A DNA stretch of 64,000 nt, from NCBI GenBank assembly GCA_021463865.1, contig JAJTXY010000004.1, positions 162,858-226,857 of the forward strand, in the 5' to 3' direction. The position numbers and the translations under genes are program-made. This DNA comes from Anaerolineae bacterium (GTDB lineage Bacteria > Chloroflexota > Anaerolineae > Aggregatilineales > J027). The notes under the pieces are model-generated. The model saw nothing but the letters and a program-made list of their open reading frames with translations. It was not told where the DNA came from and made no database searches. Shown here one piece after another: positions 19,945 to 42,739 of the stretch (its first letter is position 1; every line of letters starts with the position of its first letter).

Positions 19945-19997
19945 TTTTAAGCTCCTCCTAGAGAGCATCTTAAAACTTTTTATGTATTCAACTCATC

Positions 19998-20027
19998 ATT
20001 GGTCCGGATTTGTCCGGGTTTGTCCGG
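19998..20027. repeat. Three tandem 10-nt repeats in the SBP1 leader
   Basis: Plus strand reads ATTGGTCCGG ATTTGTCCGG GTTTGTCCGG. The minus sense reads CCGGACAAAC CCGGACAAAT CCGGACCAAT. It lies 54-83 nt upstream of the SBP1 ATG. Confidence 0.85.
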
Positions 20028-20347
20028 CCTTCTGCCCCGGAAGCATGGGTAGGGCGTCGAGTGCGGCTGTGCTCCTTTCTTAAAACCGTTGGTGCTTGGC
20101 TTCCAATGCGTTGTACATGCTTACTTGCCAGGACAAGTCAAGGCTACAACCAGTTGGGTTGGGGACTCTTTGTAGAGAAAGGGAGTGTAGTGGGGAATTG
20201 GAATGGAAAGAGGGCAACAAGCTGTCCCTGCAATCCCAAAATGAACTTTCCGTGGCCCCATCAAAATAACTATTTCTCACAAAAGTAGGAAGCACAAGTC
20301 CACTAAATTTAAATTTGTACTACAGGACTCACTCGATGCTGATATAA

Positions 20348-20378
20348 ATTATAGCGATGTACACCGCTAGAATGCAAA
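20348..20378 (-). promoter_or_regulatory. Candidate sigma70-type promoter for SBP1 (perfect -10, weak -35)
   Basis: The minus strand reads TTGCAT-(18)-TATAAT, with the -10 at 20353-20348. It is positionally homologous to the better promoter upstream of SBP3; both follow the conserved block ACTCACT(C)GATGC. Confidence 0.4.
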
Positions 20379-20503
20379 TGGTTCGCCAGATTAGAAATTT
20401 TTAATCTTGATCATTTTTTAATAAAAGGTTTAATTGAAGCCATAAACTGAATGATGTGAAGATTTATTTTGCGTCAACCTTACGAATTGAAAAAAGTATA
20501 GCC

Positions 20504-20542
20504 AATAAAAAATCCCCACCGCCAATCAATGGCGAGGGGATT
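20504..20542 (-). terminator. Rho-independent terminator of SBP2
   Basis: On the minus strand, AATCCCCTCGCCA-TTGAT-TGGCGGTGGGGATT is followed by TTTTTTATT. It lies 38 nt after the stop. Confidence 0.75.
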
Positions 20543-20579
20543 GTGCGGTAGGATTAAACCCACCCGTTGTTATGATCGG

Positions 20580-22358
20580 TTATTCACCACGCGCTGCTAA
20601 CTTGGCGGCCATATCAATGCTATACGCACCCCAATGTGGGCCACCAAACAACCCGTCGCTTTCAAATGGGCCAGTGTACCACGACTTAATCAAGTTGAAA
20701 CTGGTATCCATGAAGATAGGTGCAATGGGGTAGTCCCCCTCTGGCCCAAAGAAGGCTTCTTCAATTTCAGCATACAGTTGATCACGCACCGATGGATCAG
20801 ATTCACGCGCCGCCTCGTTAATGAGGTCGTCTACTTCGGTGCAGGGGCGCATAAAAGCATTATCGGCGGTGCAAGACAACACGTCATTCACCCAGTTGTT
20901 GGCATCACCATAATCTGGCCCCCACCCCAAGGTCCAAGCGTTGGGACGGTCTTGGGTTGGCGTATCGGCATCAATGATTTCCAACAGCACCGAAAATTCA
21001 AGCTGCTCGACATTAAACAAAGAGGGGTCACAGCCGAGATATTCCTCAGCCGCCGATGCCCAAAAGTCTGCCCAATTGCCTGCCCCGGTATAGGTTGCCA
21101 TATTGACATTCGGGAAGCCTTCACAGTTGGGATAGCCCGCTGCTTCCATTTCAGCCTTCGCATATTCGGGGTCAAACCCAACACCAATTTCGTTGATAGG
21201 CGGAGCATGAGCCATACCGGGCGGAGTAAAGTGAATCATGGGAATGGCGCTGCCACCCAAGACCTGATCAATGAAGGCTTGACGGTCAATCACCGCCCCA
21301 AAAGCACGCCGCGCATGTTCATTATCAAACGGCGCTTTGTCATGACCAAAGGCGAAATAGAAGACCGAGAGGGCAAAAATCTGAATCACCTCTTGGGAAA
21401 GTTCGGGGTCCCCCAAAATATTTTGCAGTTCCGCCGAAGGCACACCGGAAGCATCCAGTTGATTATTGAGATAGAGCGAATAGATCGTGCCGCCGTCTTC
21501 AATGACCTGCTGATTGATAATCTCAATATTGCCCGTGCCGCTAAACAGGTCGGCGGGTAGATTTTCATTACGGACAAACACACGCCGCACACCACGAGTC
21601 AGTTCATCTACTACATAGGGGCCATTCGTCACAATGTTACCGGGGGCTGTCCATTCATCACCAAATTCCTCAATAACTTCCTGTGGCACGGCACGGAGCA
21701 TCCACATGGGGGTCATCGAGAAGAAAAAGCCTGCGGCAAATTGCAATTGGACTACGAGTGTCGTGTCATCGGGCGCACTCACGGCAATTGTATCACCATA
21801 AACGAGATCATCCGTCACCGACTCAGTGGGGGTCTGATTAACCACATCACAACCCTTGATGACCTTCGCCGAAATCGTGCCGTAATAACCGCCGAGACGA
21901 GGGTCGCAGCCGCGTTTAATGCCATACACAAAATCGCTTGCGACCACCGGACGAATAATGGTCGCGCTGTCACTGGCTGGGTCCCAACGCAGCCAATTGA
22001 CATCGGTGCGCAAGTTGAATGTCCACGTCACATTGTCGGGTGCAATCGTCCATGACGAAGCTACTTCTGGATTGACCGCGCTGGTAATGGGGTCATAGTC
22101 CGTCAGGCCAAGAAATAGATTCTCGATAGGGGCAATTGAGACCTGATCTGAGGCAATCTGGGGGTCGAGGGAGCTAATTTCGCTGCTTGCCGCCGTGTCA
22201 CGCTGCACGGGGACATTTTGGCGATAGAGCGCTACCACGGTTACTTCCGTATCACTGGCCGATGCGAAACCGACGGGCAACATGGCCGCGACGAGTGCCA
22301 ACACCAGTAATGAGGCTGGCATTACCCTAACCATTCTTTTTACCACTTCTCTATTCAT
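20580..22358 (-). CDS. Extracellular solute-binding protein, family 5, paralogue 2 of 6
   Basis: Full-length paralogue with an RBS (AGGAGAG) upstream of ATG 22358 and a signal peptide ending ..GFASAS. Confidence 0.85.
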   Translation of the reverse strand: MNREVVKRMVRVMPASLLVLALVAAMLPVGFASASDTEVTVVALYRQNVPVQRDTAASSEISSLDPQIASDQVSIAPIENLFLGLTDYDPITSAVNPEVASSWTIAPDNVTWTFNLRTDVNWLRWDPASDSATIIRPVVASDFVYGIKRGCDPRLGGYYGTISAKVIKGCDVVNQTPTESVTDDLVYGDTIAVSAPDDTTLVVQLQFAAGFFFSMTPMWMLRAVPQEVIEEFGDEWTAPGNIVTNGPYVVDELTRGVRRVFVRNENLPADLFSGTGNIEIINQQVIEDGGTIYSLYLNNQLDASGVPSAELQNILGDPELSQEVIQIFALSVFYFAFGHDKAPFDNEHARRAFGAVIDRQAFIDQVLGGSAIPMIHFTPPGMAHAPPINEIGVGFDPEYAKAEMEAAGYPNCEGFPNVNMATYTGAGNWADFWASAAEEYLGCDPSLFNVEQLEFSVLLEIIDADTPTQDRPNAWTLGWGPDYGDANNWVNDVLSCTADNAFMRPCTEVDDLINEAARESDPSVRDQLYAEIEEAFFGPEGDYPIAPIFMDTSFNLIKSWYTGPFESDGLFGGPHWGAYSIDMAAKLAARGE

Positions 22359-22523
22359 GGGTTCTCTCCTGAAAATACTAAAGAATCACGAAAATTGTAC
22401 TGGATACCCCAATTTGGCACAAAAGGTTCAATTCGTTTAAGATTTTCTCATATAAGGAAACATCCCCAAAAACACAAATCCCCCCGGTGCAGCAAATCTC
22501 GCGCGGAGGGATCGGTGGTTAGG

Positions 22524-22570
22524 TCCCCTACCCTGCCGTCATCATCTACGGGCGATGGCAGGGTTAGGGA
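22524..22570 (-). terminator. Long stem-loop just after the SBP3 stop (no clear T-run)
   Basis: TCCCCTACCCTGCC (22524-22537) pairs with GGCAGGGTTAGGGA (22557-22570) with small bulges. It lies 16 nt after the stop. Confidence 0.4.
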
Positions 22571-22585
22571 ATCACTTAGTTCAGT

Positions 22586-24352
22586 TTATTCACCACGTGC
22601 TGCCAACTTCGCAGCCATGTCAATGTTGTAGGCACCCCAGTGAGCGCCACCAAACAGACCGTCGCTCTCAAATGGACCGGTGTACCACGGTTTCACCAAT
22701 GTGAAGAACGAACGCAGATAGATCGGGGCAATCGGGTATTCACCTTCTGCGCCAAAGAACGATTCTTCGATCTCGGCATACAGTTGGTCACGTACCGCCG
22801 GATCACTTTCGGCAGCGGCCTGATTGATCAGGTCGTCTACTTCGGTGCAGGGACGCAGGAAGGCGTTGTCGGAGGTGCAGGACAGCACATCGTTCACCCA
22901 GTTGTTGGCGTCACCATAGTCGGGACCCCAGCCGAGCGTCCAAGCATTCGGACGATCCTGCGTGGGGGTGTTGGGATCAACGATTTCCAACAACACGGAG
23001 AATTCAAGTTGTTCAACATTCAACAACGATGGATCACAGCCGAGATATTCTTCAGCCGCTGCTGCCCAGAAGTCTGTCCATGTACCAGCACCCTGATAAG
23101 CGACCATATCAATCGCTGGGAAGCCTTCACAGTTGGGATAACCCGCCGCTTCCATCTCGGCAACGGCGTATTCTGGGTCAAACCCAACACCGATTTCATT
23201 GATAGCAGGGGCATGAGCCATACCGGGTGGGGTGAAGTGAATCATCGGCACACCACGACCAGCCAACACCTGTTCAATGAACGCTTGGCGGTCAATGATG
23301 GCACTGAAAGCACGACGCGCGTGAACATTGTCAAAGGGCGCTTTGTCATGACCAAAGCCAAAATAGAACACGGTCAGGTCAAAGATTTGCAGCACTTCTT
23401 GGGACAATGTGGGGTCAGACAACACATTTTGGATTTCTGCCGCAGGCACACCGGAACTGTCGAGTTGGCTGTTTTGATACAGCGCATAGATCGTACCAGC
23501 GTCTTCAATCACGGTGGTGTTGATGACTTCTACATTGCCAGTGCCGCTGAACAGATCAGCAGGCAGGGCTTCGTTGCGCACGTACACGCGGCGCACACCA
23601 CGAGTAATTTCTTGCACAAAGAATGGGCCGTTCGACACGATATTGCCGGGGGCAGTCCATTCGTCACCGAATTCTTCAATGACTTCTTGTGGGACAGCAC
23701 GGAGCATCCACATGGGGGTCATGGAGAAGAAATAACCAGCAGCGAATTGCAGTTCGACCACGAGGGTCACGTCATCGGGGGCGCTGACGGCAATGGTTTC
23801 ACCGTAAACCAGATCATCCGTAACGTTTTCGGCAACCGTTTGGTTGACCACATCGCAGCCCTTGATTACCTTGGCCGAAATCGTACCGTAATAACCACCC
23901 AAACGGGGGTCGCAGCCGCGCTTAATGCCATAGACAAGATCGCCTGCCACCACTGGGCGCACGACAGCGGCGGTTTCGGTTGCCGGGTCATAACGCATCC
24001 AATTGACATCGCTGCGTAGATTGAACGTCCATACCAAACCGTCGGCGCTCACTTCCCATGAAGTCGCCAATTCGGGGTTAATCGCGCTGGTGATTGGGTC
24101 ATAGTCTGTCAGGCCCAAAAACAGATTTTCAACTGGAATGATCGAAACACTGTCCGAAATGATCGCTGGGTCAAGGGAGCTAATTTCGCTCTGGCTTGCC
24201 CCGTCAATCGTAACAGGCGTATCCTGACGATATTGGGCCACAACGGTAACGGTGGCATCTTCCGCAGCCGCAAAACCGGTCGGAAGTAATGCAACCACCA
24301 GTGTCAGCACAATCGCTGCGACTGGGATGAGTCGAAAAGTGGATTTAGACAT
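22586..24352 (-). CDS. Extracellular solute-binding protein, family 5, paralogue 3 of 6
   Basis: Start ATG 24352 (MSKSTFRL) is preceded by AGGAGG. This copy is closest to paralogue 1 at the N-terminus. Confidence 0.85.
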   Translation of the reverse strand: MSKSTFRLIPVAAIVLTLVVALLPTGFAAAEDATVTVVAQYRQDTPVTIDGASQSEISSLDPAIISDSVSIIPVENLFLGLTDYDPITSAINPELATSWEVSADGLVWTFNLRSDVNWMRYDPATETAAVVRPVVAGDLVYGIKRGCDPRLGGYYGTISAKVIKGCDVVNQTVAENVTDDLVYGETIAVSAPDDVTLVVELQFAAGYFFSMTPMWMLRAVPQEVIEEFGDEWTAPGNIVSNGPFFVQEITRGVRRVYVRNEALPADLFSGTGNVEVINTTVIEDAGTIYALYQNSQLDSSGVPAAEIQNVLSDPTLSQEVLQIFDLTVFYFGFGHDKAPFDNVHARRAFSAIIDRQAFIEQVLAGRGVPMIHFTPPGMAHAPAINEIGVGFDPEYAVAEMEAAGYPNCEGFPAIDMVAYQGAGTWTDFWAAAAEEYLGCDPSLLNVEQLEFSVLLEIVDPNTPTQDRPNAWTLGWGPDYGDANNWVNDVLSCTSDNAFLRPCTEVDDLINQAAAESDPAVRDQLYAEIEESFFGAEGEYPIAPIYLRSFFTLVKPWYTGPFESDGLFGGAHWGAYNIDMAAKLAARGE

Positions 24353-24682
24353 TTTGGCCCCTCCTGGAGAGCGCAATTTATCTTAAGAATCGAATTTTTT
24401 GGGTGGGTTCATCCGGTCAGTTGCCCCGGAAAGCATGTCAATAGTTGAAATGTTGGTGACACACCTTTCTCCTGATTGGTAACGAGCCTTACATCGGGTG
24501 AGGATTTACACAACATATACATGGGGGACAGTTTGGAAGTTCAAGGAATTTTTGAGGGAATCGCATCGAGCGAATTCGGTTTCCCAGAAACAAGAGCTGT
24601 TTCCAAACCGCACACATGTCAATTGAATTGCAGGGCAACCCAATGGGATGTTGTTAAAAACTCACTGATGCCATTAATGAAG

Positions 24683-24710
24683 ATTATAGGAAGGGTTCAC
24701 CTATTGTCGA
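24683..24710 (-). promoter_or_regulatory. Near-consensus sigma70-type promoter for SBP3, implying a ~320-nt 5' leader
   Basis: The minus strand reads TCGACA (24710-24705), a 16-nt spacer, then TATAAT (24688-24683). Confidence 0.55.
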
Positions 24711-24796
24711 GAAACATCAGAGATTTCTAACGTCTCTATGGTTTTGTTAAATCGTCGAACCAGATGCAATTTTCGGGCGTACATGCAATTAGAAAT

Positions 24797-24879
24797 AAAA
24801 AGAGGGTTTGCCAGGACAGCCCTCTTTTTGCCGCATAAAAGGCAAAAGGAGTAGGAGTGTTAACCATACCCCTACTCCT
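24797..24879 (-). terminator. Cluster of three hairpins downstream of SBP4, two of them followed by T-runs on the minus strand
   Basis: GGAGTAGG/CCTACTCC (24848-24878) is followed by TTTTGCCTTTT on the minus strand. TTGCC/GGCAA is a short middle hairpin. AAAAAGAGGG..GCCAGGACA..CCCTCTTTTT spans 24797-24829. Confidence 0.65.
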
Positions 24880-24963
24880 CATCAATTACAAAAATGACGA
24901 TTCTATAGCCTGCCTATCTCATAACGAGCTAAGGCTCTATTGTACCGACCACTGGTTTAGTGC

Positions 24964-26727
24964 CTATTCGCCACGTGCGGCCAACTTCGCCGCCATATCA
25001 ATCGTATACGCTCCCCAGTGAGCGCCGCCAAACAACCCGTCCGTTTCAAACGGCCCAGTGTACCATGGCTTAAAAAGACTGAACGCGGAACTTAGGAACA
25101 ACGGCACAATCGGGTAGTCCCCATCCGGGCCAAAGAGCGCCTCTTCGATTTCGGCATACAACTGGTCACGCACGGTTGGGTCGGTTTCGCGGGCGGCCTG
25201 ATTCAAAAGGTCATCCACTTCGGTGCAGGATCGCAGGAAATTATAGTCTGCCGTGCAAGACAGCACATCGTTGACCCAATTATTGGCATCGGCATAATCT
25301 GGCCCCCACCCCAACGTCCACGCATTGGGGCGATCTTGCGTAGGCGTCTCGTTATCAATGATTTCCAGCAGTACCGAAAATTCAAGCTGCTCGGTATTAA
25401 ACAGGGTGGGATCGCAACCGAGATATTCTTCGGCAGCGGCAGCCCAAAAATCGGCCCAATTGCCTGCCCCTTGATAGGCGGCAATATTGATATTCGGGAA
25501 ACCTTCACAATCGGGATAGCCTGCGGCTTCTAGTTCAGCAACGGCATAGTCGGGGTCAAAGCCAACGCCGATTTCATTGATGGCCGGGGCATGAGCCATA
25601 CCGGGCGGCGTGAAGTGGATCATCGGCACCCCTTGACCGCTGGCAACCTGCTCCACAAATGCTTGCCGATCCACAATCGCGGCAAAGGCCCGACGCGCAT
25701 GGACATTATCAAAGGGCGCTTTGTCATGGGCAAAGCCAAAATAATAGACGCTCAGGGTGAAAATTTGGCGAACCTGCTGCGACAATTCAGGATCAGCCAA
25801 TACATTCTGCAATTCCGCTGGGGGCACACCCGCCGCGTCATGCTGATGATTGAGATACAGAGCATAGGCTGTCCCAGCATCTTCAATCACGCTGTAGTTG
25901 ACCACCTCAAGGTTGCCGTTGCCGCTGAATAGGTCTAAAGGCAGGGCTTCATTACGCACATAGACCCGCCGCACACCGCGTGTAATCTCATCCACAAAAT
26001 AGGGGCCATTGGTGACGATGTTGCCGGGGGCTGTCCATTCATCGCCATAATCTTCAATGGTTTCCTGTGGGACGGCCCGCAACATCCACATAGGAGTCAT
26101 GGAAAAGAAATACCCGGCGGCAAATTGCAGTTCGACCACCACCGTCACATCATCTGGCGCACTGATTTTGACTGTATCGCCAAACACCAGATCATCAGTC
26201 GTGGCTTCGGCACTGGTCTGATTCACAATATCGCAGCCCGCGATCACTTTGGCGGCCACCGAACCATAATAGTTGCCGAGGCGACCATCACAGGCCCGTT
26301 TGATGCCATATACAAAGTCGCCTGCCACCACTGGGCGCACAACTGAGGCGGTTTTGCTGGCGGGGTCATAGTGCATCCAATTGACATCCGAGCGCAAATG
26401 GAATGTCCATGTCAGACCATCTTGGCTCACTTCCCAACTAGTCGCCAGTTCAGGGTTGACCGCACCCGTCACGGGGTCAGAATCGGTCAGCCCCAAAAAC
26501 AGATTTTCAATCGCGGTAATCGAAAGCGCGTCGCTGGCAATGCCGGGGTCAAGTGAACTGACCTCATCCGGGGACGACGTATCGCGGGTGACGGGGACAT
26601 CTTGGCGATAGAGCGCCGCAATCGTGATAGTGCTGTCAGACGCCGAGGCAAAGCCTACTGGGAACAGCGCGACCACCATCGTAAAAATTACAATCAATAC
26701 GGGCAACAATCGAATCTTTAAACTCAT
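24964..26727 (-). CDS. Extracellular solute-binding protein, family 5, paralogue 4 of 6
   Basis: Start ATG 26727 (MSLKIRLL) is preceded by AGGAGG. Full-length paralogue. Confidence 0.85.
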   Translation of the reverse strand: MSLKIRLLPVLIVIFTMVVALFPVGFASASDSTITIAALYRQDVPVTRDTSSPDEVSSLDPGIASDALSITAIENLFLGLTDSDPVTGAVNPELATSWEVSQDGLTWTFHLRSDVNWMHYDPASKTASVVRPVVAGDFVYGIKRACDGRLGNYYGSVAAKVIAGCDIVNQTSAEATTDDLVFGDTVKISAPDDVTVVVELQFAAGYFFSMTPMWMLRAVPQETIEDYGDEWTAPGNIVTNGPYFVDEITRGVRRVYVRNEALPLDLFSGNGNLEVVNYSVIEDAGTAYALYLNHQHDAAGVPPAELQNVLADPELSQQVRQIFTLSVYYFGFAHDKAPFDNVHARRAFAAIVDRQAFVEQVASGQGVPMIHFTPPGMAHAPAINEIGVGFDPDYAVAELEAAGYPDCEGFPNINIAAYQGAGNWADFWAAAAEEYLGCDPTLFNTEQLEFSVLLEIIDNETPTQDRPNAWTLGWGPDYADANNWVNDVLSCTADYNFLRSCTEVDDLLNQAARETDPTVRDQLYAEIEEALFGPDGDYPIVPLFLSSAFSLFKPWYTGPFETDGLFGGAHWGAYTIDMAAKLAARGE

Positions 26728-26957
26728 TTGCAAGATCCTCCTGAGTTGAATGAATGGGACAGCGTGAGGACTCACTTGCCGTAAAACGGGGTACGCAGAT
26801 TTTATGCAGAAACACGGAGAAAGGTTGTAAAGGTAGAGTTTTTCTGATCTATTATAAAATTTGTCAAAATAGTGAACTTATGGCTAATTCAAGGGGTATT
26901 TATATAACAAAATACCCCTTACCATTTGCGCACCCAAAAAGTTCAAACTGATTTCTA

Positions 26958-26992
26958 CAAAAAAAGCCGAGAGGGGCCAGGACACCCTCTCG
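26958..26992 (-). terminator. Rho-independent terminator of SBP5
   Basis: CGAGAGGG-GCCAGGACA-CCCTCTCG (26968-26992), with TTTTTTT following on the minus strand. It lies 28 nt after the stop. Confidence 0.8.
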
Positions 26993-27019
26993 ATAGATTT
27001 ATTTGACTATTTATTCTTT

Positions 27020-28780
27020 TTACTCACGCACGGCCAATTTCGCGGCCATGTCAATAGAATAGGCGATCCAGTGCTGTCCACCGAAGAGACCATCCGTCTC
27101 AAACGGGCCAGTGTACCATGGCTTGAACAGCAAATAATCCGAACGTAGATACAGCGGAGCCATCGGGAATTCGCCATCTGCGCCGAAGAACCCCTCTTCG
27201 ATTTCGGCATACAGTTGGTCACGTACACCGGGATCGCTGACTGTTGCAGCCTCCGCAATGAGGTCATCCACTTCGGTGCAAGGCCGTTTCATACGATTCG
27301 CAACCGTGCAGGCCAATACGTCACCCACCCAGTTGTTGGCATCGCCATAATCCGGCCCCCACAACAACGTCCATGCGTTGGGGCGATCTTCGGTTGGGGT
27401 ATCGGAATCGGTGATTTCGAGCAGCACGGAGAATTCGAGTTGTTCGATGGTGAATAGGGTCGGGTCGCAGCCGAGATATTCTTCAGCCGAGGTCGCCCAA
27501 AATTCACCCCAGTCCCCTGCCGTCGTATAGGTTACGATGTTGATGTCAGGGAAACCTTCGCAGTCAGGATAACCTGCTGCTTCTAGTTCAGCGGCGGCAT
27601 ATTCAGGGTCAAAACCGACTCCCACTTCATTGATCGGGGCGGCATGAGCCATACCGGGGGGTGTGAAGTGGATCATCGGCACCCCGCGCCCTTCCTGCAC
27701 CTGATCAATAAACGCTTGCCGATCAATGATGGCACTGAACGCACGACGGGCATGGACATCATCAAACGGGGCTTTGTCGTGGGCAAACCCAAAATACGAC
27801 ACGGCGAGGTCAAATATCTGGCGCACTTCGTTTTGATACTGCGGGTCAGACACCACCCCCTGCAATTCGGCGTCGGGGATGTTGGTCGCGTCGAGTTGAT
27901 TATCCAGATACAGCGCGAACTGGGTGCCGAGGTCTTCAATCAACAGGGTGTTCACCACATCAATGTTGCCAGACCCCTGCAAATCGGCGGGTAGGGCTTC
28001 ATTGCGGACAAACACGCGGCGTACCCCACGAGTCACTTCTTGGACAAAATAGGGGCCGTTGGTGATGATATTGCCCGGTTGCGTCCATTCGTCACCATAG
28101 TCTTCAATCGCCTCACGCGGGGTTGGGCGCAGCACCCACATCTGGGTCATCGAGAGGAAATAACCCGCCGGAAATGCCAACGTAATCACCAGCGTCGAAT
28201 CATCCGGCGCGGATACTTGGGTGGTGTCTCCATACACCAAATCATCCGTTACTTGGTCAACTGGGCTTTGGTTGACCACACTGCAACCCGCGATGACACC
28301 AGCAACCACCGTGCCATAATAGCTGGCAAGGCGGGGGTCACAGGCGCGTTTGATGCCAAACACAAAATCGCCTGCTACAACCGGACGAATGACGGTGGCG
28401 GTGTCAGCGGTGGGATCATACTGCATCCAATTGACATCGGTACGCAGATTAAACGTCCATGTCAGGCCATCTTCACTCACCGTCCATGAGGTCGCCAATT
28501 CCGGCACAATCTGATTGGTGATGGGGTCGGAATCAGTCAGGCCCAAAAACAGATTTTCGACAGACGTAATCGAAATCTGATCTGACCCAATGGCGGGGTC
28601 AAGCGTACTGACTTCGCTGGTCGAGGCTGTATCGCGTTGCACGGGGACGTCTTGGCGATATTGGGCCGTGACGGTGATAGTGCTGTCTTCGGCGGCCACC
28701 AAACCAACCGGAATGAAGGACACCAAGAGGGTTAGCAGCACAGCCATAACCGTGCCTGCTCGCAAGGTGTTTTTAGACAT
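27020..28780 (-). CDS. Extracellular solute-binding protein, family 5, paralogue 5 of 6 (more divergent)
   Basis: Full-length paralogue with an RBS (AAGGAG) and a signal peptide ending ..GLVAAEDS. Confidence 0.85.
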   Translation of the reverse strand: MSKNTLRAGTVMAVLLTLLVSFIPVGLVAAEDSTITVTAQYRQDVPVQRDTASTSEVSTLDPAIGSDQISITSVENLFLGLTDSDPITNQIVPELATSWTVSEDGLTWTFNLRTDVNWMQYDPTADTATVIRPVVAGDFVFGIKRACDPRLASYYGTVVAGVIAGCSVVNQSPVDQVTDDLVYGDTTQVSAPDDSTLVITLAFPAGYFLSMTQMWVLRPTPREAIEDYGDEWTQPGNIITNGPYFVQEVTRGVRRVFVRNEALPADLQGSGNIDVVNTLLIEDLGTQFALYLDNQLDATNIPDAELQGVVSDPQYQNEVRQIFDLAVSYFGFAHDKAPFDDVHARRAFSAIIDRQAFIDQVQEGRGVPMIHFTPPGMAHAAPINEVGVGFDPEYAAAELEAAGYPDCEGFPDINIVTYTTAGDWGEFWATSAEEYLGCDPTLFTIEQLEFSVLLEITDSDTPTEDRPNAWTLLWGPDYGDANNWVGDVLACTVANRMKRPCTEVDDLIAEAATVSDPGVRDQLYAEIEEGFFGADGEFPMAPLYLRSDYLLFKPWYTGPFETDGLFGGQHWIAYSIDMAAKLAVRE

Positions 28781-28883
28781 CTAGGAACTCCTTTTTGAAT
28801 CGAAATGATGTAATTAGGCTACCAAGTGGCGGGTCAGGCCGACCTATAACGACACCCCCTCCTTATCGTTCGTGTTCCGTGTG

Positions 28884-28924
28884 AAAAAATAGGCAACCTA
28901 CACTGGGAACAAATGTAGGCTGCT
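28884..28924 (-). terminator. Rho-independent terminator ~215 nt downstream of SBP6
   Basis: On the minus strand, GCAGCCTACA-TTTGTTCCCAG-TGTAGGTTGC is followed by CTATTTTTT. Confidence 0.7.
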
Positions 28925-29139
28925 GACCAATGACGAGTAGCGTGCTTTCGGATGGCTGATGCAACTCCAACGAAGTGTTTCGTCTACTCACTCTATTTAC
29001 ACCGAAAAATGGAAGGGTGTTCGATTCTAAGAGGGGATTCACCAAAATACTAATTCTTTGAACCTATCCTGCTACATGGGGCTATTGTTAATTCCCCTCC
29101 CACCCGACGGTTGGGGCAAGAGGGGAAAAGAAGATTGGG

Positions 29140-30900
29140 TTATCCCCCTCCTCGTGCCGCCAATTTTGCAGGCATATCAATCATTTGGGCGTTCCAATGT
29201 GTCCCACCAAACAAGGCATCGGTCTCAAAGGGTGCGGTGTACCATGCCTTAATCAAGACAAAATCGGAGCGAAGGAATAGCGGCGCGATGGGATATTCAC
29301 CCCGCACCCCAAAAAACCCCTCCTCAATTTCGGCATACAACAGCGTTCGTACTTCTGGGTCATTAGAGCGGGCCGCTGCGTCCATCAAATCATCTATACT
29401 ACTGCACTGCCGCCGAAACCGATTCAGTGTCGTACACGACAGCACATCTGTCAGCCAGCTATGCGCATCGCCATAACCCGGCCCCCACCCCAACGTAAAC
29501 ATATTGGGACGTTCATCACCGTAGACATCCGGCGCGATGGCTTCCAATAGCACCGAAAATTCAAACTGCTCAATTGTGAATAGGGTCGGGTCACACCCCA
29601 AGTATTCCTCGGCGGAGGACACCAAAAATTCGGCCCATGTGCCTGCTCCAGTATAGGTCGCAATGGTGATATTCGGCAGCCCTTCACAGTTACTATACCC
29701 CCCTCGGGCCAGTTGATCTTTCGCAAATTCCGGGTCGAAACCCACCCCGATTTCATTGATGGGCGGTGCATAGGCAATCCCCGTCGGCGTGAAATGGATC
29801 ATGGGGATGCCACGTCCGCCGCGCACCTGATTGATAAAGGCTTGGCGGTCAATGATAGCACTAAACGCCCGCCGCACCTGCACATTGTCAAACGGGGGCT
29901 TGTCTTGGATGAATCCAAAATAGAACACCGATAGATCAAATACCTGCCGCACTTCGCCTTCAAAGTCAGGACTCGCCAAGACATTTTGCAATTCCGCCGG
30001 GGGTATGGCCGCCGCATCAATCTTGTTATCAATATAGAGCGCAAACGACGTGCCTTGATCTTCAATGACAAGCTGCACCACGCGCTCCAAATTGCTGCGA
30101 TACCCAAACAAATCATTCGGCAGGGCATCGTTTCGCACAAACACCCGCTGCAAGCCGCGTGTCAGTTCTTGGATAAAAAACGGCCCATTCGTGACAATAT
30201 TGCCGGGGGCCGTCCATTCATCCCCATAATCTTGGATCACTTCCGCCGGGACAGGTCGCAGCATCCACATCGGGGTCATCGCAAAGAAAAACGCCGCCGG
30301 AAATTGTAGGGTTACTTCGAGGGTCTGCTCGTCAAGTGCCTGCACCTTAATCGTATCGCCATACACTAAATCATCTGTTAGCCCATTGGCAGGCGTCTGA
30401 TTGATGATGTCGCATCCTGAAATGACCTTCGCGGCTACCGTCCCATAATATCCACCGAGGCGCGGGTCACAGGTTCGTTTGATGCCATATACAAAATCAC
30501 CCGCCACGACTGGGCGCACTACCCCGGCGGTTTCACTGGCAGGGTCATAACGCATCCAGTTGACATCCGAGCGCAACTGAAATGTCCACACCGTCCCGTC
30601 GTCACTCACGACCCATGACTTGGCAAGTTCTGGCACAACCTCATTGGTAAACGGGTCAACATCGGTCAGACCCAAAAATAAATTCTCAATCGGCGTGAGC
30701 GACACCGTATCGGAGGCCAACGCCGGGTCAAGCGTGCTGATTTCCGAACTCACCGCCGCATCCAACGTTACCGGAGTATCGGCTTGATATAACGCCACAA
30801 TCGTGACTCCACTATCCTCAGCCCGACTTACCCCCCTCGGCCCGCCGAACCCAATGACGATTAAGCCTACTAATCCCATCATCCATAGTCGCCGTCGCAT
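29140..30900 (-). CDS. Extracellular solute-binding protein, family 5, paralogue 6 of 6 (most divergent)
   Basis: Full-length paralogue with an Arg-rich N-terminus, MRRRLWMMGLVGLIVIGFGG. It has the same six conserved Cys positions as the other copies. Confidence 0.85.
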   Translation of the reverse strand: MRRRLWMMGLVGLIVIGFGGPRGVSRAEDSGVTIVALYQADTPVTLDAAVSSEISTLDPALASDTVSLTPIENLFLGLTDVDPFTNEVVPELAKSWVVSDDGTVWTFQLRSDVNWMRYDPASETAGVVRPVVAGDFVYGIKRTCDPRLGGYYGTVAAKVISGCDIINQTPANGLTDDLVYGDTIKVQALDEQTLEVTLQFPAAFFFAMTPMWMLRPVPAEVIQDYGDEWTAPGNIVTNGPFFIQELTRGLQRVFVRNDALPNDLFGYRSNLERVVQLVIEDQGTSFALYIDNKIDAAAIPPAELQNVLASPDFEGEVRQVFDLSVFYFGFIQDKPPFDNVQVRRAFSAIIDRQAFINQVRGGRGIPMIHFTPTGIAYAPPINEIGVGFDPEFAKDQLARGGYSNCEGLPNITIATYTGAGTWAEFLVSSAEEYLGCDPTLFTIEQFEFSVLLEAIAPDVYGDERPNMFTLGWGPGYGDAHSWLTDVLSCTTLNRFRRQCSSIDDLMDAAARSNDPEVRTLLYAEIEEGFFGVRGEYPIAPLFLRSDFVLIKAWYTAPFETDALFGGTHWNAQMIDMPAKLAARGGG

Positions 30901-37400: not shown

Positions 37401-38357
37401 GTGCCAATGTCGAATGTTCGGAGTTCATCTCACTGGGTCACACGCCTGCCTTTTATCATGCTGGGGGCGTTGATGCTCACTGCATTGTTGGTTGCGTGTG
37501 GAGATAAGGATGAACCACCTCCTACCGAATTCGTGATAGTACCGGGCGTACCCACCTCCACCAGCACGCCGACCATCGCCCCTACCATCAATGAAACCGA
37601 AACCATCGCTGCAATTTTGGAGTCCGCCAATGCCACCGCGACAACCCAACAGCAGATTATTGATGCCCAAGCCACCCAGTTGACCCTTGTCACGACCCAA
37701 CAGGTCGAAGGCGGTCAGCAGGGTGATCCGCCAACCGTTGAGCCTGCCATCGCCGTAACACAGACCTATCAGGCCAGCCAGCCGACCCCGACCCCGACGG
37801 AAACCGCCCTACCCAGCATCTTCCCAACGCCGCAAATTGAACAGGTGATTGTGGTTGAGCAGGTCTTTGAAGGCGGGCGTATGTTCTGGTTCCGTGAGAG
37901 CCATAAAATTTGGGTGGTCTATGGCGTAGATACTGCCGACCCCGGCAAGATTGTCGTTGACCCGACACAGGGCGAATGGCTTTGTTACGACGATACTTTT
38001 GTGGATGGCGAACCGGAACTCGACCCCGCGATGGAACCGCCCGCCGACTCCGCCACCACTTCGACTTTCGTCTCGGTCTATCCGCAGGCCCGTGTCCAAC
38101 AGCCGATTCGGGGTTTTGGCAAATTGTGGCGCGAACACGCTGAACTGCGCGACCATTTAGGCTGGGCACTCACCGCCGAAATTGAACACAACACCCGCCG
38201 CGAGTATCTGGCAGGGGGTACAGTACAAAATGGCGCGTATGTCCCCGGCCCCGGTGAATGGCGCGTGGGGTCGTTTTTTAATGCGACCTATATTTTCCTA
38301 GAGAAAGAACTCGGTGCGGACTGCCCAACCGGGACATGGCGTATGCGTCAGGGCTAA
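37401..38357 (+). CDS. Lipoprotein, unknown function
   Basis: Signal peptide with a lipobox (..LLVACGDKDE) and a Pro/Thr-rich linker. The C-terminal globular part has no motif I recognise. Confidence 0.6.
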   Translation: MPMSNVRSSSHWVTRLPFIMLGALMLTALLVACGDKDEPPPTEFVIVPGVPTSTSTPTIAPTINETETIAAILESANATATTQQQIIDAQATQLTLVTTQQVEGGQQGDPPTVEPAIAVTQTYQASQPTPTPTETALPSIFPTPQIEQVIVVEQVFEGGRMFWFRESHKIWVVYGVDTADPGKIVVDPTQGEWLCYDDTFVDGEPELDPAMEPPADSATTSTFVSVYPQARVQQPIRGFGKLWREHAELRDHLGWALTAEIEHNTRREYLAGGTVQNGAYVPGPGEWRVGSFFNATYIFLEKELGADCPTGTWRMRQG

Positions 38358-38431: not shown

Positions 38432-38701
38432 CTAACGGCGATCTTCAATTACCCATTCTGATAAAGTCGGCGTCCCTTGAAAGGCTTGGGATATTTCATC
38501 TGCCATCAATTCCAAATCGGCATCGCTATCATCACTCGTATCAGGCCATGACGCCACCAAATCACCCAATGCGGCTCTTAGCGCATCCTTATCCAAAATC
38601 GACTTGACAATCACCTCCACTTGCTGCCCCTCTGCCAATTCTATTGGTTCTAGGAGGCGCAACTGTCCGTGTTCATAAACCGCTTGTACAGTTTGTATCA
38701 T
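38432..38701 (-). CDS. DUF104 (AF2212-like antitoxin fold) protein with an acidic C-terminal extension
   Basis: MIQTVQAVYEHGQLRLLEPIELAEGQQVEVIV is the characteristic DUF104 N-terminus (a.Y.nG.l.Ple.l.l.eG..v.v.i). Its ATG overlaps the upstream stop (ATGA). Confidence 0.6.
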   Translation of the reverse strand: MIQTVQAVYEHGQLRLLEPIELAEGQQVEVIVKSILDKDALRAALGDLVASWPDTSDDSDADLELMADEISQAFQGTPTLSEWVIEDRR

Positions 38702-38952
38702 TTTTTCACACTCCTTCGCTCACGCCTGACCTCGGCTAGTGCTTCATCAATCACTCGGTTGACTTCTTCCTCCGACATCTGCGTCGCTTGTTCTTGCACA
38801 GGTCGCATCAACTCGTCAATCTTTCGCCAATTTTCGGCAGGTACAACCCACCAACGCGCTCCTTGCCGTTCTCGAATATAAAGTTGTAATTGATACAATT
38901 CTTCGGGCGTCATTTCATCCACCACCCGAAAAACCATCTGCATATCGGTCAT
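38698..38952 (-). CDS. Small helical protein, unknown function, translationally coupled to the DUF104 gene
   Basis: 84-aa ORF with no recognisable family and a 4-nt overlap with the downstream gene. Confidence 0.45.
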   Translation of the reverse strand: MTDMQMVFRVVDEMTPEELYQLQLYIRERQGARWWVVPAENWRKIDELMRPVQEQATQMSEEEVNRVIDEALAEVRRERRSVKK

Positions 38953-39076
38953 GGTTTAAAACCCTTCTCACCCTTACAACCATCACCCCGATGATAGCAT
39001 ACCCGTCGCTGGAAAGGGGGACACCCCCTGCATCCCACGTCAGAAATGCAGCGTTCCAGAATTCAGAAAACCAGAA

Positions 39077-40336
39077 CTAGGGGAGGGCGGATGCACAACG
39101 AAAACCCCTGACACTGTCGACACGGCTGGGATCATCCCCGCCGCGCAGAGCAGTACGAAGGAAGTAATCACTACTGAGGAATGAGCCTCCTCGCAATACA
39201 CGATTATTGTCTTTATGAGTATTAGCTGAATCTGTACCCCATTCTGTCATGCACCATTCCCACACATTCCCGACCATATCCATCACACCAAACTTACTTG
39301 CACCCTCCAAATATTGGGTTACAGGTGTTACATGTGCCATATGGTAACCAAAATTACACAACCCTGTATCTGGTTTTCGATTACCCCAAGGATACTCACG
39401 TCCGTCATCTGCTTGAGCGGCACGTTGCCACTGCTGCTCTGTTGGAAGTATGATGTTTTGATCTGTCCCATTGCCTAACCAACGGCAAAATGCTACTGCC
39501 TCATACCAACTGACATTAGTACGCGGCGAGTCATCCCCAGGAAAGCCCGTTTCATGAGGCGTCTTGTGTTCGGCCCGCCATTGTCTCGCCTCTTCCGAGT
39601 AATTCCACCACTTTACATCCCAATAACCATCCTTTGAGGCGAGAAATACCTCATATTGGGCATTGGTAATTGGATATTTCGCCATCAAAAATGCTGGAAT
39701 TTCAAATGTGCCGCCTTTGGTTCCCCCATCCGAACTCGCATCCTCCAGCGTCACCTTGCCCGCCGGAATCTCGCACCATTCAAAGGGTTGTGGCAGAATA
39801 TCCCATACCTCGATTTTCTTCGGGTTGGATGGGATCATCTTCTTGCTATTCCGCCGATCCAATTCGGCTTCCAATGCCCCGATAATATCCGCAATGTTTT
39901 TCAAAAAAGGCCGCCCCGAGTCCAATTCCGGCGCATGATAGCGGGTAATTGCCTTCAAGTCGGGGAAATCTTGCAAATCTTTTGCATTGGGCATTTTCGC
40001 CCCTTTAATGCAAATCGGCGCGACCAGTTTGCCCTGTTCCAATGCAATCGCAATTTCCAACCGCACATAATCCGTTTCGTCACGGCCTGCTCGTTCGTGC
40101 AAGTGTTCCAACCACTGCGGCCCGATAATCACAAGCACCACTTCCGATTCCAATACTTTTTCGCGGATGAACTCGGCAAAATCGGTAAAATACGGCATGT
40201 TGCTCAAATCCATAAACACCCGTTCACCATCATACCCATTGGCGATAAACCAATCACGGATACGTTCTACAAAATCGGGGTGGTCAGGGCGGCGGTAGCT
40301 AATAAAGATGGTGGGTTTCTGAGAGGTCATAAACAA
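39077..40336 (-). CDS. TIR domain / formylglycine-generating-enzyme (FGE-sulfatase, SUMF1-like) domain fusion protein
   Basis: The N-terminus reads TIFISYRRPDHPDFVERIRDWF..GERVFMD......I.E.VLESEVVLVIIGPQWL....DYVRLEIAIALEQGK, the TIR_2 pattern (FISY..D, vvvlvS, conserved Glu). The C-terminus reads ..YPITNAQYEVF......PRTNVSWYEAVAFCRWL....LPTEQQWQRAA....YPWG....GNVWEWC....RVLRGGSF...., the FGE-sulfatase pattern. Confidence 0.8.
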   Translation of the reverse strand: MFMTSQKPTIFISYRRPDHPDFVERIRDWFIANGYDGERVFMDLSNMPYFTDFAEFIREKVLESEVVLVIIGPQWLEHLHERAGRDETDYVRLEIAIALEQGKLVAPICIKGAKMPNAKDLQDFPDLKAITRYHAPELDSGRPFLKNIADIIGALEAELDRRNSKKMIPSNPKKIEVWDILPQPFEWCEIPAGKVTLEDASSDGGTKGGTFEIPAFLMAKYPITNAQYEVFLASKDGYWDVKWWNYSEEARQWRAEHKTPHETGFPGDDSPRTNVSWYEAVAFCRWLGNGTDQNIILPTEQQWQRAAQADDGREYPWGNRKPDTGLCNFGYHMAHVTPVTQYLEGASKFGVMDMVGNVWEWCMTEWGTDSANTHKDNNRVLRGGSFLSSDYFLRTALRGGDDPSRVDSVRGFRCASALP

Positions 40337-41623: not shown

Positions 41624-42739
41624 ATGCGCCCCCCTCTAAAAAATCTCTGGCGATTGACGGGAATCGGCTTGTGTGTCGTGTTTATGCTGGTTTTGATGGT
41701 ATCTGGCACGTATTCCACCCGTGCTCAAGATGCCCCTACCCCCACCACTGAACCATTGCCTCAATCAAGCCCGATGGCGGCAACCCCAACCTCGGAGGCC
41801 CCGCCCCTTTCGACCAGTCAACTTGCCCTGTTATCACAAATAGATGCGGCGAACCTTGACCAGTCTAACTGGCAGTCCTATCGCGTGGTCAGCTTTAACA
41901 ATATCAGCTTTGTCGAAACCCTGACCAACCCCGCCGATGGCAGCATCTTATCACAACGTCAAGAGGACACGAATAGTCTAATTACTACCGATGTGCAAGG
42001 CGACATCCGCACACCCAATCACCTCCGTAGTGCCCTGATGACGGTGGAACGCATTGAACGCAGCAGTTTTTCAGCAGGCACTCCCACTACCGAGCAATAT
42101 ACGCTGCTAGTTGAGGCGCGGTATGTCAACAATCGGCTATATATACAAGCGATACGCACGGGTGGATCGGAAAGTTTGCCCGCTATGCCCCCCGTTGGTT
42201 GGACAGACATCACCGATAATCCCAACCAATTCCCAGCACTAGCGGCGATAAATCTGCGTCAATATGTGCCCAGTGCGACCCAAACACCGGGACTTAATCC
42301 CTTGACGACCACCGATTGGGTTAGTGTAGTCCAAAACACCCCTCTGCGTGATTTGATTGCCGATATTCGCCTTGAACAGCCCGAAACATTTTTGGAAGGC
42401 CCATTCGCTGGACAGACCTTTAATAAAATCATCGTTCAGCTAGACCCAGCGGCGGTGATGCGGGCCGCGTTTGCCAATCGCCCCGATGCCGAAGTATTGA
42501 TCGCAGTGTTCGTCAACGAAGGGGTAGACATGTCACTGACGATCTGGCTGGATCAGACCAATTCACGGCGGGTACGCGAGCAATATGTGTTTGTAATTCA
42601 GGGCAACCCAACACCGGAATCGTTTGGCTATGCCCCCGGTGATATTGGCGAAGGCAGCCTGATTAATGCCATATTCTCGTCGGAGAGCGATTTGACCTAT
42701 ACGGCGAACACACCCGTCAAGATTGAAGTGCCACAATAA
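41624..42739 (+). CDS. Secreted protein, unknown function
   Basis: GGGAGG RBS, an N-terminal hydrophobic signal (LTGIGLCVVFMLVLMVSG) and a Pro/Thr linker. Confidence 0.6.
   Translation: MRPPLKNLWRLTGIGLCVVFMLVLMVSGTYSTRAQDAPTPTTEPLPQSSPMAATPTSEAPPLSTSQLALLSQIDAANLDQSNWQSYRVVSFNNISFVETLTNPADGSILSQRQEDTNSLITTDVQGDIRTPNHLRSALMTVERIERSSFSAGTPTTEQYTLLVEARYVNNRLYIQAIRTGGSESLPAMPPVGWTDITDNPNQFPALAAINLRQYVPSATQTPGLNPLTTTDWVSVVQNTPLRDLIADIRLEQPETFLEGPFAGQTFNKIIVQLDPAAVMRAAFANRPDAEVLIAVFVNEGVDMSLTIWLDQTNSRRVREQYVFVIQGNPTPESFGYAPGDIGEGSLINAIFSSESDLTYTANTPVKIEVPQ

Follow-up and report, generated by a model that had tools for sequence, protein, structure and literature searches.

A stand-alone TIR-FGE protein beside two putative orphan antitoxin genes

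The window analysed here is a 64,000-nt stretch of DNA from an Anaerolineae bacterium (GenBank assembly GCA_021463865.1, contig JAJTXY010000004.1, positions 162,858 to 226,857). It carries on its minus strand a gene that joins a TIR domain to a formylglycine-generating enzyme (FGE)-sulfatase domain, followed on the same strand by two small genes. Comparison of this locus with homologous loci, which are labelled by L-numbers below, indicates that it holds two unrelated things, namely a stand-alone TIR-FGE protein with the anatomy of a sensor and effector, and two orphan antitoxin genes. We put the probability of this reading at roughly 60%. In the chain of events that we consider probable, the variable FGE domain would bind a ligand that is foreign, for instance a phage protein, or that changes in some other way; ligand binding would drive self-association of the TIR domain, possibly aided by a linker helix; and the assembled TIR would consume NAD+ or make an NAD-derived signal, leading to arrest of the infected cell. 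Diversity of the binding domain would arise from recombination between alleles and paralogues, probably together with past or trans-acting mutagenesis by a diversity-generating retroelement (DGR). The main uncertainty is whether the function is immune or regulatory, and whether DGR mutagenesis continues.

The locus had previously been described, from the sequence of the window, as a sensor (FGE)-effector (TIR) protein possibly held in check or modulated by the two small proteins (hereafter, the original prediction). Its three minus-strand open reading frames (ORFs) of 419, 84 and 89 aa, the 124-nt gap 3' of the TIR-FGE gene and the 4-nt ATGA overlap between the two small ORFs were all recovered, and Pfam upheld its domain calls of TIR_2, of a full FGE-sulfatase domain at the C-terminus and of AF2212-like/DUF104 in the 89-aa protein (E values in Table 1). 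The sensor-effector anatomy also stood, in the form of a SARM1-like TIR with a conserved Glu and an apparently non-catalytic, hypervariable FGE domain. What the original prediction missed was a C-terminal variable-region (VR) scaffold of DGR type, as well as the prior description of the architecture. Because orthologues begin with MTSQKPT or MATQKPT, the true start of the TIR-FGE gene is probably the ATG at 40330, giving a protein of 417 aa, rather than the TTG at 40336. As its sequence shows neither an evident signal peptide nor an evident transmembrane segment, the protein is predicted to be cytoplasmic.

The TIR half resembles SARM1

We utilized AlphaFold2 with 69 homologues to model the full protein. 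The model, with a mean pLDDT of 93.3 (90.6 for the TIR domain modelled alone), consists of the TIR domain, a long helix (residues 144-166) and the FGE-fold domain, in that order. The top sequence matches of the TIR half in the PDB were the TIR domains of SARM1 and TIR-1 (E about 7e-4, 22-24% identity). Foldseek with the TIR-only model returned the SARM1 TIR at E=2.6e-9, with a TM-score on the target of 0.82-0.86 and an rmsd of 2.2-3.0 Å, and ranked plant NLR TIRs and AbTir below it. The original prediction had placed the Glu of DYVRLEIAIAL at the catalytic position of NAD-cleaving TIRs; this residue, E94, aligned with the Glu of the SARM1 'DWVHKEIVTAL' ('KEI') motif, which we take to be E642, and is present in 68 of the 69 homologues. 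Judged by sequence and modelled fold, the TIR half is predicted to be of the SARM1 type, the NAD-cleaving kind, with its catalytic Glu retained. SARM1-type TIRs are NAD-destroying effectors. Unlike SARM1 and TIR-1, the window protein has no ARM or SAM domains, and its activation would have to come from the lectin-type domain.

The FGE half is a putative binding module

The FGE half was matched by Foldseek to EgtB, FGE, ToxD, CalU17, TvpA, PvdO and PorK, with E about 1e-16 against FGE structures. EgtB and FGE were the best overall matches in fold and sequence, and the best C-terminal match was SUMF2 (1y4j), presumably a catalytically inactive FGE paralogue. The rank of EgtB and FGE, together with sub-threshold NCBIfam matches to EgtB, OvoA and SenA, would fit a working FGE or an EgtB/OvoA-type sulfoxide synthase, in keeping with the NCBI name 'SUMF1/EgtB/PvdO family nonheme iron enzyme', yet such an activity is barely conceivable in view of four further observations. 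The NCBIfam scores (64-69 bits) fall five- to six-fold short of the cut-offs (360-420 bits). The Cys pair of FGE is missing: in the alignment with T. curvata FGE (5nxl/6s07), the first copper-binding catalytic Cys lies opposite S388 and the second sits in a 3-residue insertion absent from the window protein, and no Cys is conserved in the active-site columns across the 69 homologues. The N-terminal DinB domain of EgtB carries iron ligands, and the window protein has no such domain, the TIR occupying its N-terminal position. Finally, the hypervariable block of the protein corresponds to the former active-site stretch.

The NCBIfam scores and the loss of the Cys pair led us to rule out an enzymatic FGE or EgtB role. 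Since the copper-binding cysteines are lost, the FGE half is predicted to be a non-enzymatic binding module rather than an enzyme, and annotating such proteins as 'SUMF1/EgtB/PvdO family nonheme iron enzyme' misleads.

Conserved effector halves and exchanged binding halves in syntenic genomes

The TIR_2 and FGE combination is common, with both domains in nearly all of the best 120 clusters listed, and the named sources among these clusters are mostly metagenome-assembled genomes (MAGs) of Chloroflexota/Anaerolineae. Eight related Anaerolineae genomes (the window, L001, L003, L005, L007, L009, L011 and L129) are syntenic at the locus, and all eight carry TIR-FGE in the same chromosomal slot. 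The order of the slot is Metalloenzyme, TIR-FGE, variable cargo, a 318-aa gene (hyp318), AMMECR1, flavin reductase and PNPOx, with LysE and two-component genes as further neighbours. Identity of flanking proteins to those of the window is 93-99% for the closer genomes and 83-98% for L009; the whole TIR-FGE protein shares 82, 74, 73, 54, 39 and 75% in six orthologues.

The two halves of the protein account for this divergence unequally. Residues 1-135, the TIR half, retain 89-93% identity in the five closer orthologues and 54% in L009, with a synonymous divergence (dS) of 0.37-0.66 and a dN/dS ratio (omega) of about 0.08, comparable to neighbouring genes, whereas residues 186-419, the FGE half, retain 37-73% identity, with dS of 0.7-2.1 (saturated in L009) and omega of 0.13-0.37. 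Because dS itself is raised in the FGE half relative to the TIR half, the FGE half appears to have been exchanged, beyond merely evolving faster. A 30-codon identity profile revealed that this half is a mosaic between orthologues. The window and L001 have in common a 98-99% identical tract at residues 181-240 on a background of ~90%; in L007 the whole FGE domain is replaced from about residue 150, and L009 likewise has a whole-domain replacement. The replaced part of both alleles starts just past the linker-helix region, and both proteins carry an extra HEAT-like N-terminal extension. Divergence within the gene peaks at residues 241-270 and 331-419; across the first of these hot spots, amino acid identity to L003, L005 and L011 is 47-50%, against 67-80% in the adjoining bins.

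Several metagenome contigs start near TIR-FGE, namely L013 at window position 39443, L014 inside the VR, and L004, L006 and L011 just upstream; repeated contig breaks at or inside the gene are consistent with strain heterogeneity in the populations. A hypervariable binding half beside a conserved effector half is the pattern expected of a recognition module. The genomes form a natural allelic series of at least eight near-isogenic members in which the TIR is mostly constant and the binding domain is swapped, so that the antigen-sensor hypothesis becomes directly testable, and the series suits domain-swap and ligand-fishing work. The locus is also a simple test case, with a single protein of ~417 aa that has neither an NTPase nor an adaptor.

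Further genes of the same kinds were seen in related genomes. In the closest relative genome, L001 (5040-5897), the Metalloenzyme gene is separated from TIR-FGE by an extra FGE-only gene (285 aa, Pfam 4.2e-46), which is reminiscent of the short 'CLec-only' (C-type-lectin-only) second targets of DGR loci; no template repeat was found at L001. The DPW16 MAG, the genome that also contains L005, has a second TIR_2 and FGE paralogue of 541 aa (L127 9246-11626). This paralogue lies in a Wzy/glycosyltransferase cluster, divergent to an adjoining gene for a Macro domain (a fold that binds or hydrolyses ADP-ribose), and a functional link between TIR products and the Macro protein is possible. Another TIR_2 protein (464 aa, L130 1-1374) is encoded 4.6 kb from a distant TIR-FGE homologue, with a DDE transposase fragment directly downstream of its gene.

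A DGR-type variable region with no retroelement found nearby

The last part of the FGE half contains the VR scaffold. Across the 69 homologues its framework is near-invariant (R-V-L-R-G-G-S-(W/F)...R...R...P...G-F-R), and the positions between framework residues are hypervariable, being mostly N, D, S, Y or G. A pyrimidine (C or T) is the last base of 15 of 17 variable codons in the window VR, compared with 49% of codons in the remainder of the gene (p=9e-4), a bias that an origin from AAY template codons would produce. The pN/pS ratio is 0.68-0.74 in the VR, against 0.26 for FGE residues outside it and 0.11 for the TIR domain, and VR differences fall on first and second codon positions more than on third positions. 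These features of the sequence suggest that the FGE domain is of the DGR-target type.

We searched for the other components of a DGR. Neither short-word blastn of the gene's 3' end nor a motif-anchored scan for template repeats (TRs) found a TR-like repeat in the 64-kb window, and none was found in ~13 kb of each of six relatives (L001-L011) or around the L127 paralogue in DPW16. Applied to 80 distant FGE loci, the scan did detect 10 genuine TR/VR pairs, whose mismatches between TR and VR were adenine-specific (for example 23/23, 20/20, 15/15 and 14/14), a success that gives weight to the negative result. No reverse transcriptase (RT)-like ORF with a YxDD motif was present in the window, where the sole YxDD match is a penicillin-binding protein by Pfam, and no RVT_1 was annotated in the 6-10 kb flanks of related loci or beside the paralogue P0015 of the L005 genome.

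The genuine DGR loci recovered by the scan were L039, L043, L044, L050, L060, L064, L067, L070, L082 and L086, and L050, L067 and L086 have at least two VRs per TR. The DGR-positive taxa comprise Accumulibacter, Nitrospira, Zoogloea, Anaerolineales, Chloroflexales and a cyanobacterium.

Three further comparisons bear on whether the VR is still being rewritten. In a single comparison, L013, which comes from another sequencing run, matched the window at 100% identity across 3,443 nt, a span that takes in the VR. The framework codons of the VR differ synonymously between orthologues. Hairpins 3' of the VR were also examined: the window has a 6-bp stem at +47, L005 an 8-bp stem and L001 a 6-bp AT-rich stem, and the remaining five orthologues have none, compared with downstream stems of 7-13 bp at 8 of 11 true DGR VRs. 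The downstream hairpin is probably too weak, and too inconsistent among the orthologues, to act as a DGR homing signal.

It is possible, though doubtful, that the gene is an active remote DGR target whose VR is rewritten in trans by an RT and a TR elsewhere in the genome, an explanation compatible with the sensor-effector reading. Remote targets diversified in trans have been documented, as have TIR-CLec targets (PMC10907252, PMC7517822), and the 10 true DGR targets among the 80 distant FGE loci include Anaerolineales and Chloroflexales. The protein itself would suit the part, with an FGE-type CLec fold (TvpA being among its fold matches), a canonical VR scaffold with its N/D/S/Y/G spectrum and NNY bias, and a VR that is the most divergent part of the TIR-FGE gene; the contigs that break inside the gene or its VR point the same way. 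Ongoing rewriting is harder to reconcile with the absence of a TR-like repeat from the window, the relatives and the paralogue locus, with the absence of an RT-like YxDD ORF from the window, and with a VR in L013 that is unchanged despite the separate sequencing run. The synonymously divergent framework codons, the divergence of the whole FGE domain and not of the VR alone, and a hairpin that is weak or missing in most orthologues argue in the same direction. We regard the FGE domain as either a remote DGR target or, more probably, a paralogue or fossil that owes its present diversification mainly to recombination. If the VR were rewritten from a distance, the protein would be a hypermutating TIR-linked receptor.

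The small genes occupy a slot of changing cargo

The original prediction had the 84-aa and DUF104 proteins restraining or modulating the TIR-FGE protein, in the manner of antitoxins to a TIR toxin. The three genes share a strand, are closely spaced and include the ATGA overlap; purifying selection persists on the 84-aa gene (omega 0.11-0.15); and the close 84-aa subfamily, 9 clusters in a word search of the protein, sits directly downstream of TIR-FGE in the same slot at every locus examined. This adjacency is confined to one narrow, wholly syntenic clade and therefore carries little information. The comparative data appear largely to refute the three-gene model, which we consider highly improbable.

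Within the clade, TIR-FGE is present in 8/8 genomes, an intact 84-aa gene in 6/8 and the DUF104 gene in 3/8, such that five genomes carry TIR-FGE but lack DUF104, and an intact 84-aa gene is missing from L001 and L129. Downstream of TIR-FGE, the slot contains the 84-aa and DUF104 genes in the window, L003 and L007; a lone 84-aa homologue with a different C-terminal tail in L011; a frameshifted MNT nucleotidyltransferase gene with an 84-aa homologue in L005/L006; MNT, an 84-aa homologue and a PIN_3 gene split into two ORFs in L009/L010; an 84-aa gene reduced to a 53-aa remnant in L001; and nothing in L129. MNT (NTP_transf_2) is inserted between TIR-FGE and the 84-aa gene (L005 7388-7750, L009 4708-4950). 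The presence of MNT and PIN_3 fragments in the slot likewise counts against the three-gene model. Co-occurrence of the three genes in other genomes, which that model implies, did not extend beyond the clade either. Neither small gene was found at the distant TIR-FGE loci L015-L017, L033 and L130, and tblastn of the 84-aa and DUF104 proteins against the 80 distant FGE or TIR-FGE loci gave no matches.

Relatives of the small proteins point to other partners. The window 84-aa protein has no significant Pfam match of its own. A profile search of its family gave about 105 representatives, nearly all of 80-90 aa; 6 of 54 members match Pfam DUF2281 (best E=2.9e-6), and in distant members the overlapping gene on the 3' side is a PIN_3 toxin (L099, L103/L104 and L120, E 1e-13 to 1e-15), with a PIN_3 fragment in L112 and a PIN_3 copy cut by the contig end in L117. 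Because family members overlap PIN_3 toxin genes and match DUF2281, the 84-aa protein is predicted to be an antitoxin of the DUF2281-like/PIN_3 family that is an orphan here; the PIN_3 position 3' of the gene is occupied in the window by DUF104. The closest out-of-clade relatives of the DUF104 protein (60-61% identity) lie in DUF104-PIN gene pairs, for example in L095 and a JGI contig, and TIR-FGE is not nearby. The more distant members of both families pair with PIN-type toxins and not with TIR-FGE, contrary to the three-gene model. The absence of a PIN/VapC partner at the locus, noted in the original prediction, was borne out: the next gene lies on the opposite strand, and no PIN toxin follows. 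The DUF104 genes of the window, L003 and L007 are 99% identical, and their dS of 0.035-0.07 is well below the value of about 0.3 for flanking genes. The cassette may therefore have been transferred or spread recently, have undergone gene conversion, or be constrained at the nucleotide level.

The 124-nt gap before the small genes, which also speaks against a single unit, contains a conserved motif of its own, TATGCTATCAT. This motif is duplicated on either side of the L005 MNT insertion, and the MNT insertion is bracketed by two copies of a TATGCTAT(C/T)ATAG motif. The duplication suggests that the small genes may have their own promoter or operator. A scan for sigma-70 promoters and terminators gave counts at shuffle level; the sigma-70 type may not apply to Chloroflexota.

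We interpret the small genes as two probable orphan antitoxins in a hot spot for toxin-antitoxin (TA) cassettes, and not as regulators of TIR-FGE. They share with VapBC-type modules (DUF104/AF2212-PIN and DUF2281-like-PIN_3) the antitoxin families, the size and the 4-nt overlap, but differ from them in having neither toxin gene and in placing two antitoxins of different families in tandem. Comparative evidence is needed before small TA-like genes beside an effector gene are taken for its regulators. At L015 (5407-5982), a small-gene pair of DUF4160 and DUF2442, unrelated to the window pair and presumably a TA pair itself, directly precedes a distant TIR-FGE homologue; it may be a second TA-like cassette abutting TIR-FGE, or a coincidence in TA-rich genomes.

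Comparison with known systems and possible function

FGE-sulfatase/CLec (FGS/CLec) domains have been described as diversified sensor modules, always C-terminal to effectors that include TIR, in multicellular bacteria (PMC7159879, PMC7517822, PMC10907252). For cyanobacterial CLec variable proteins, Vallota-Eastman et al. 2020 listed TIR-like domains as one of the kinds found at the N-terminus; they also defined remote variable proteins and variable-protein homologues (PMC7517822). Dore et al. 2024 proposed DGR-diversified CLec domains as antigen sensors, documented trans diversification and included filamentous Chloroflexi (PMC10907252), and a 2026 survey found FGE-sulfatase-like sensors in defence-associated STAND proteins (PMC13581612). 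Combinations of TIR with C-type-lectin/FGE have already appeared in the literature, both as DGR targets or paralogues and in the role of putative antigen sensors, and the window gene fits this class.

Like the DGR variable proteins and their paralogues (Kaur et al. 2020, PMC7159879; PMC7517822; PMC10907252), the window protein has an N-terminal effector and a C-terminal CLec domain of FGE type that ends in the same VR scaffold; TIR has been listed as an N-terminal domain of those proteins, their hosts are filamentous or multicellular and include Chloroflexi, and their CLec domain is a proposed antigen sensor. The window gene differs in having no RT or TR within 64 kb and no MoxR/vWA, STAND or adaptor component, in being solo and vertically syntenic, and in a divergence that spans the whole FGE domain with recombination tracts rather than adenine-templated VR positions alone. 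It sets itself apart in the known class as a minimal two-domain form with no local DGR and a fixed chromosomal position.

Other known systems share single parts of this design. Avs-like STAND NTPases (PMC13581612) likewise combine a C-terminal FGE-sulfatase-like sensor with an N-terminal effector, whereas the window protein, at about 417 aa, lacks the central NTPase oligomerisation module; Pfam found no central STAND NTPase in the protein, and the annotated flanks contained no MoxR and vWA pair. Fusions of caspases (orthocaspases or metacaspases) with FGE-sulfatase (PMC3501461, PMC8283722) also join a death-type effector to a C-terminal FGE-sulfatase domain in multicellular bacteria, but the effector of the window protein is a TIR and not a peptidase. 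Thoeris ThsB has the TIR domain in common with it, with weak PADLOC and NCBIfam matches to ThsB/ThcB4; these scores are far under family level, an FGE fusion is foreign to Thoeris, and no ThsA-type effector (SIR2/SLOG or Macro) was found among the neighbouring genes. PADLOC and NCBIfam scans of the three proteins gave weak TIR-level or sub-threshold matches and no named defence system.

Several points weigh against an immune sensor-effector. To our knowledge, the link between CLec/FGE sensors and death effectors in multicellular bacteria has been predicted from genomics alone, which is also how the architecture of the window protein is known, and the weak PADLOC matches reach only the TIR level. 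The neighbourhood consists of housekeeping genes with no defence island, and the TIR-FGE gene is vertically syntenic, off any mobile island. There is no NTPase or thresholding component, unlike in most described CLec-sensor conflict systems. dN/dS is nowhere above 1, though sites are saturated. The same anatomy also suits a role in regulation or development, such as has been proposed for the DGR targets of cyanobacteria (PMC7517822).

Such a non-immune role would make the protein a signalling or developmental regulator of a filamentous bacterium, acting in cell death, kin or self recognition or stress tuning, with an endogenous or environmental ligand. The stable chromosomal place among housekeeping and two-component genes would agree with it, as would the sister-genome paralogue in a polysaccharide (Wzy) cluster beside a Macro-domain gene and the reading of cyanobacterial CLec-fused kinases, caspases and TIRs as regulatory (PMC7517822). 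We nevertheless consider this role unlikely. Hypervariability of the binding domain and allele swapping between near-identical genomes are more typical of antagonistic co-evolution, a cytoplasmic protein argues against cell-surface recognition of kin, and TIRs of the SARM1 type destroy NAD.

Taking the immune sensor-effector further, one may tentatively picture a minimal NTPase-free receptor of two domains, in which a SARM1-type TIR NADase is coupled to an antibody-like lectin domain whose repertoire is renewed by recombination and a trans-acting DGR. It would provide single-gene abortive infection fixed at a conserved site in filamentous Anaerolineae, and the orphan antitoxins might act as decoys for PIN toxins arriving from outside. 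We hold this fuller picture to be speculative and rather less than probable.

Composition, coordinates and neighbouring genes

The original prediction had described the TIR-FGE gene as more AT-rich than its neighbours. Its AT-richness is real but modest: the GC content is 49.0% against a window mean of 51.3% (sd 2.6), GC at third codon positions (GC3) is 0.50 against 0.55-0.61 in neighbouring genes, and one 100-nt stretch within the gene (39277-39376) has 40% GC. The gene is no compositional outlier, lying at the 20th percentile. With this percentile, no tRNA genes found in the 64-kb window and no integrase among the annotated genes of the syntenic flanks, we ruled out a GC-based island or horizontal-transfer origin. 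The features of the locus are collected in Table 1.

Table 1. Positions of the TIR-FGE gene, its domains and the neighbouring features within the 64,000-nt window
Feature	Position	Strand	Remarks
TIR-FGE gene	39077..40336	-	419-aa ORF, TTG start at 40336
TIR domain	39932..40309	-	Residues 10-135, SARM1-like; Pfam TIR_2 at residues 10-122, E=3.5e-11
Candidate catalytic Glu E94	40055-40057	-	In DYVRLEIAIAL
Long linker helix between TIR and FGE	39839..39907	-	Residues 144-166; DSSP on AlphaFold2 models
FGE-sulfatase/C-type-lectin-fold domain	39092..39775	-	Residues 188-415; Pfam E=2.7e-44
Second FGE divergence hot spot	39527..39616	-	Residues 241-270
DGR-type VR scaffold	39098..39202	-	Residues 379-413, RVLRGGSF-x6-LRTALR-x4-P-x7-GFR
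Intergenic region	38953..39076	-	Short GC hairpin and conserved motif
Short GC hairpin	39016-39028		GGGGGTGTCCCCC; weak, unconserved in most orthologues
Conserved motif	38991-39001		TATGCTATCAT; upstream of the small genes
84-aa gene	38698..38952	-	Predicted DUF2281-like antitoxin of PIN_3-type family, orphan; neighbour, not part of the TIR-FGE unit
89-aa DUF104/AF2212-like gene	38432..38701	-	Predicted VapB-type antitoxin without adjacent toxin; Pfam at residues 1-42, E=1.2e-9
Convergent 318-aa gene (hyp318)	37401..38357	+	Next gene past the 89-aa ORF, 74 nt from the DUF104 stop
371-aa conserved flanking gene	41624-42739	+	No Pfam domain

The 318-aa and 371-aa proteins encoded on either side of the locus have no Pfam domain, yet the clade conserves them at 83-95% identity. 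Hydrophobic N-terminal segments and low-complexity linkers rich in Thr and Pro give both of them the look of secreted or lipoprotein-like proteins. Elsewhere in the window, on the minus strand at 18181-30900, six tandem paralogous genes specify family-5 extracellular solute-binding proteins of 586-603 aa (SBP_bac_5, E 1e-48 to 1e-55), an unusual local expansion of binding proteins of peptide/oligosaccharide ABC transporters.

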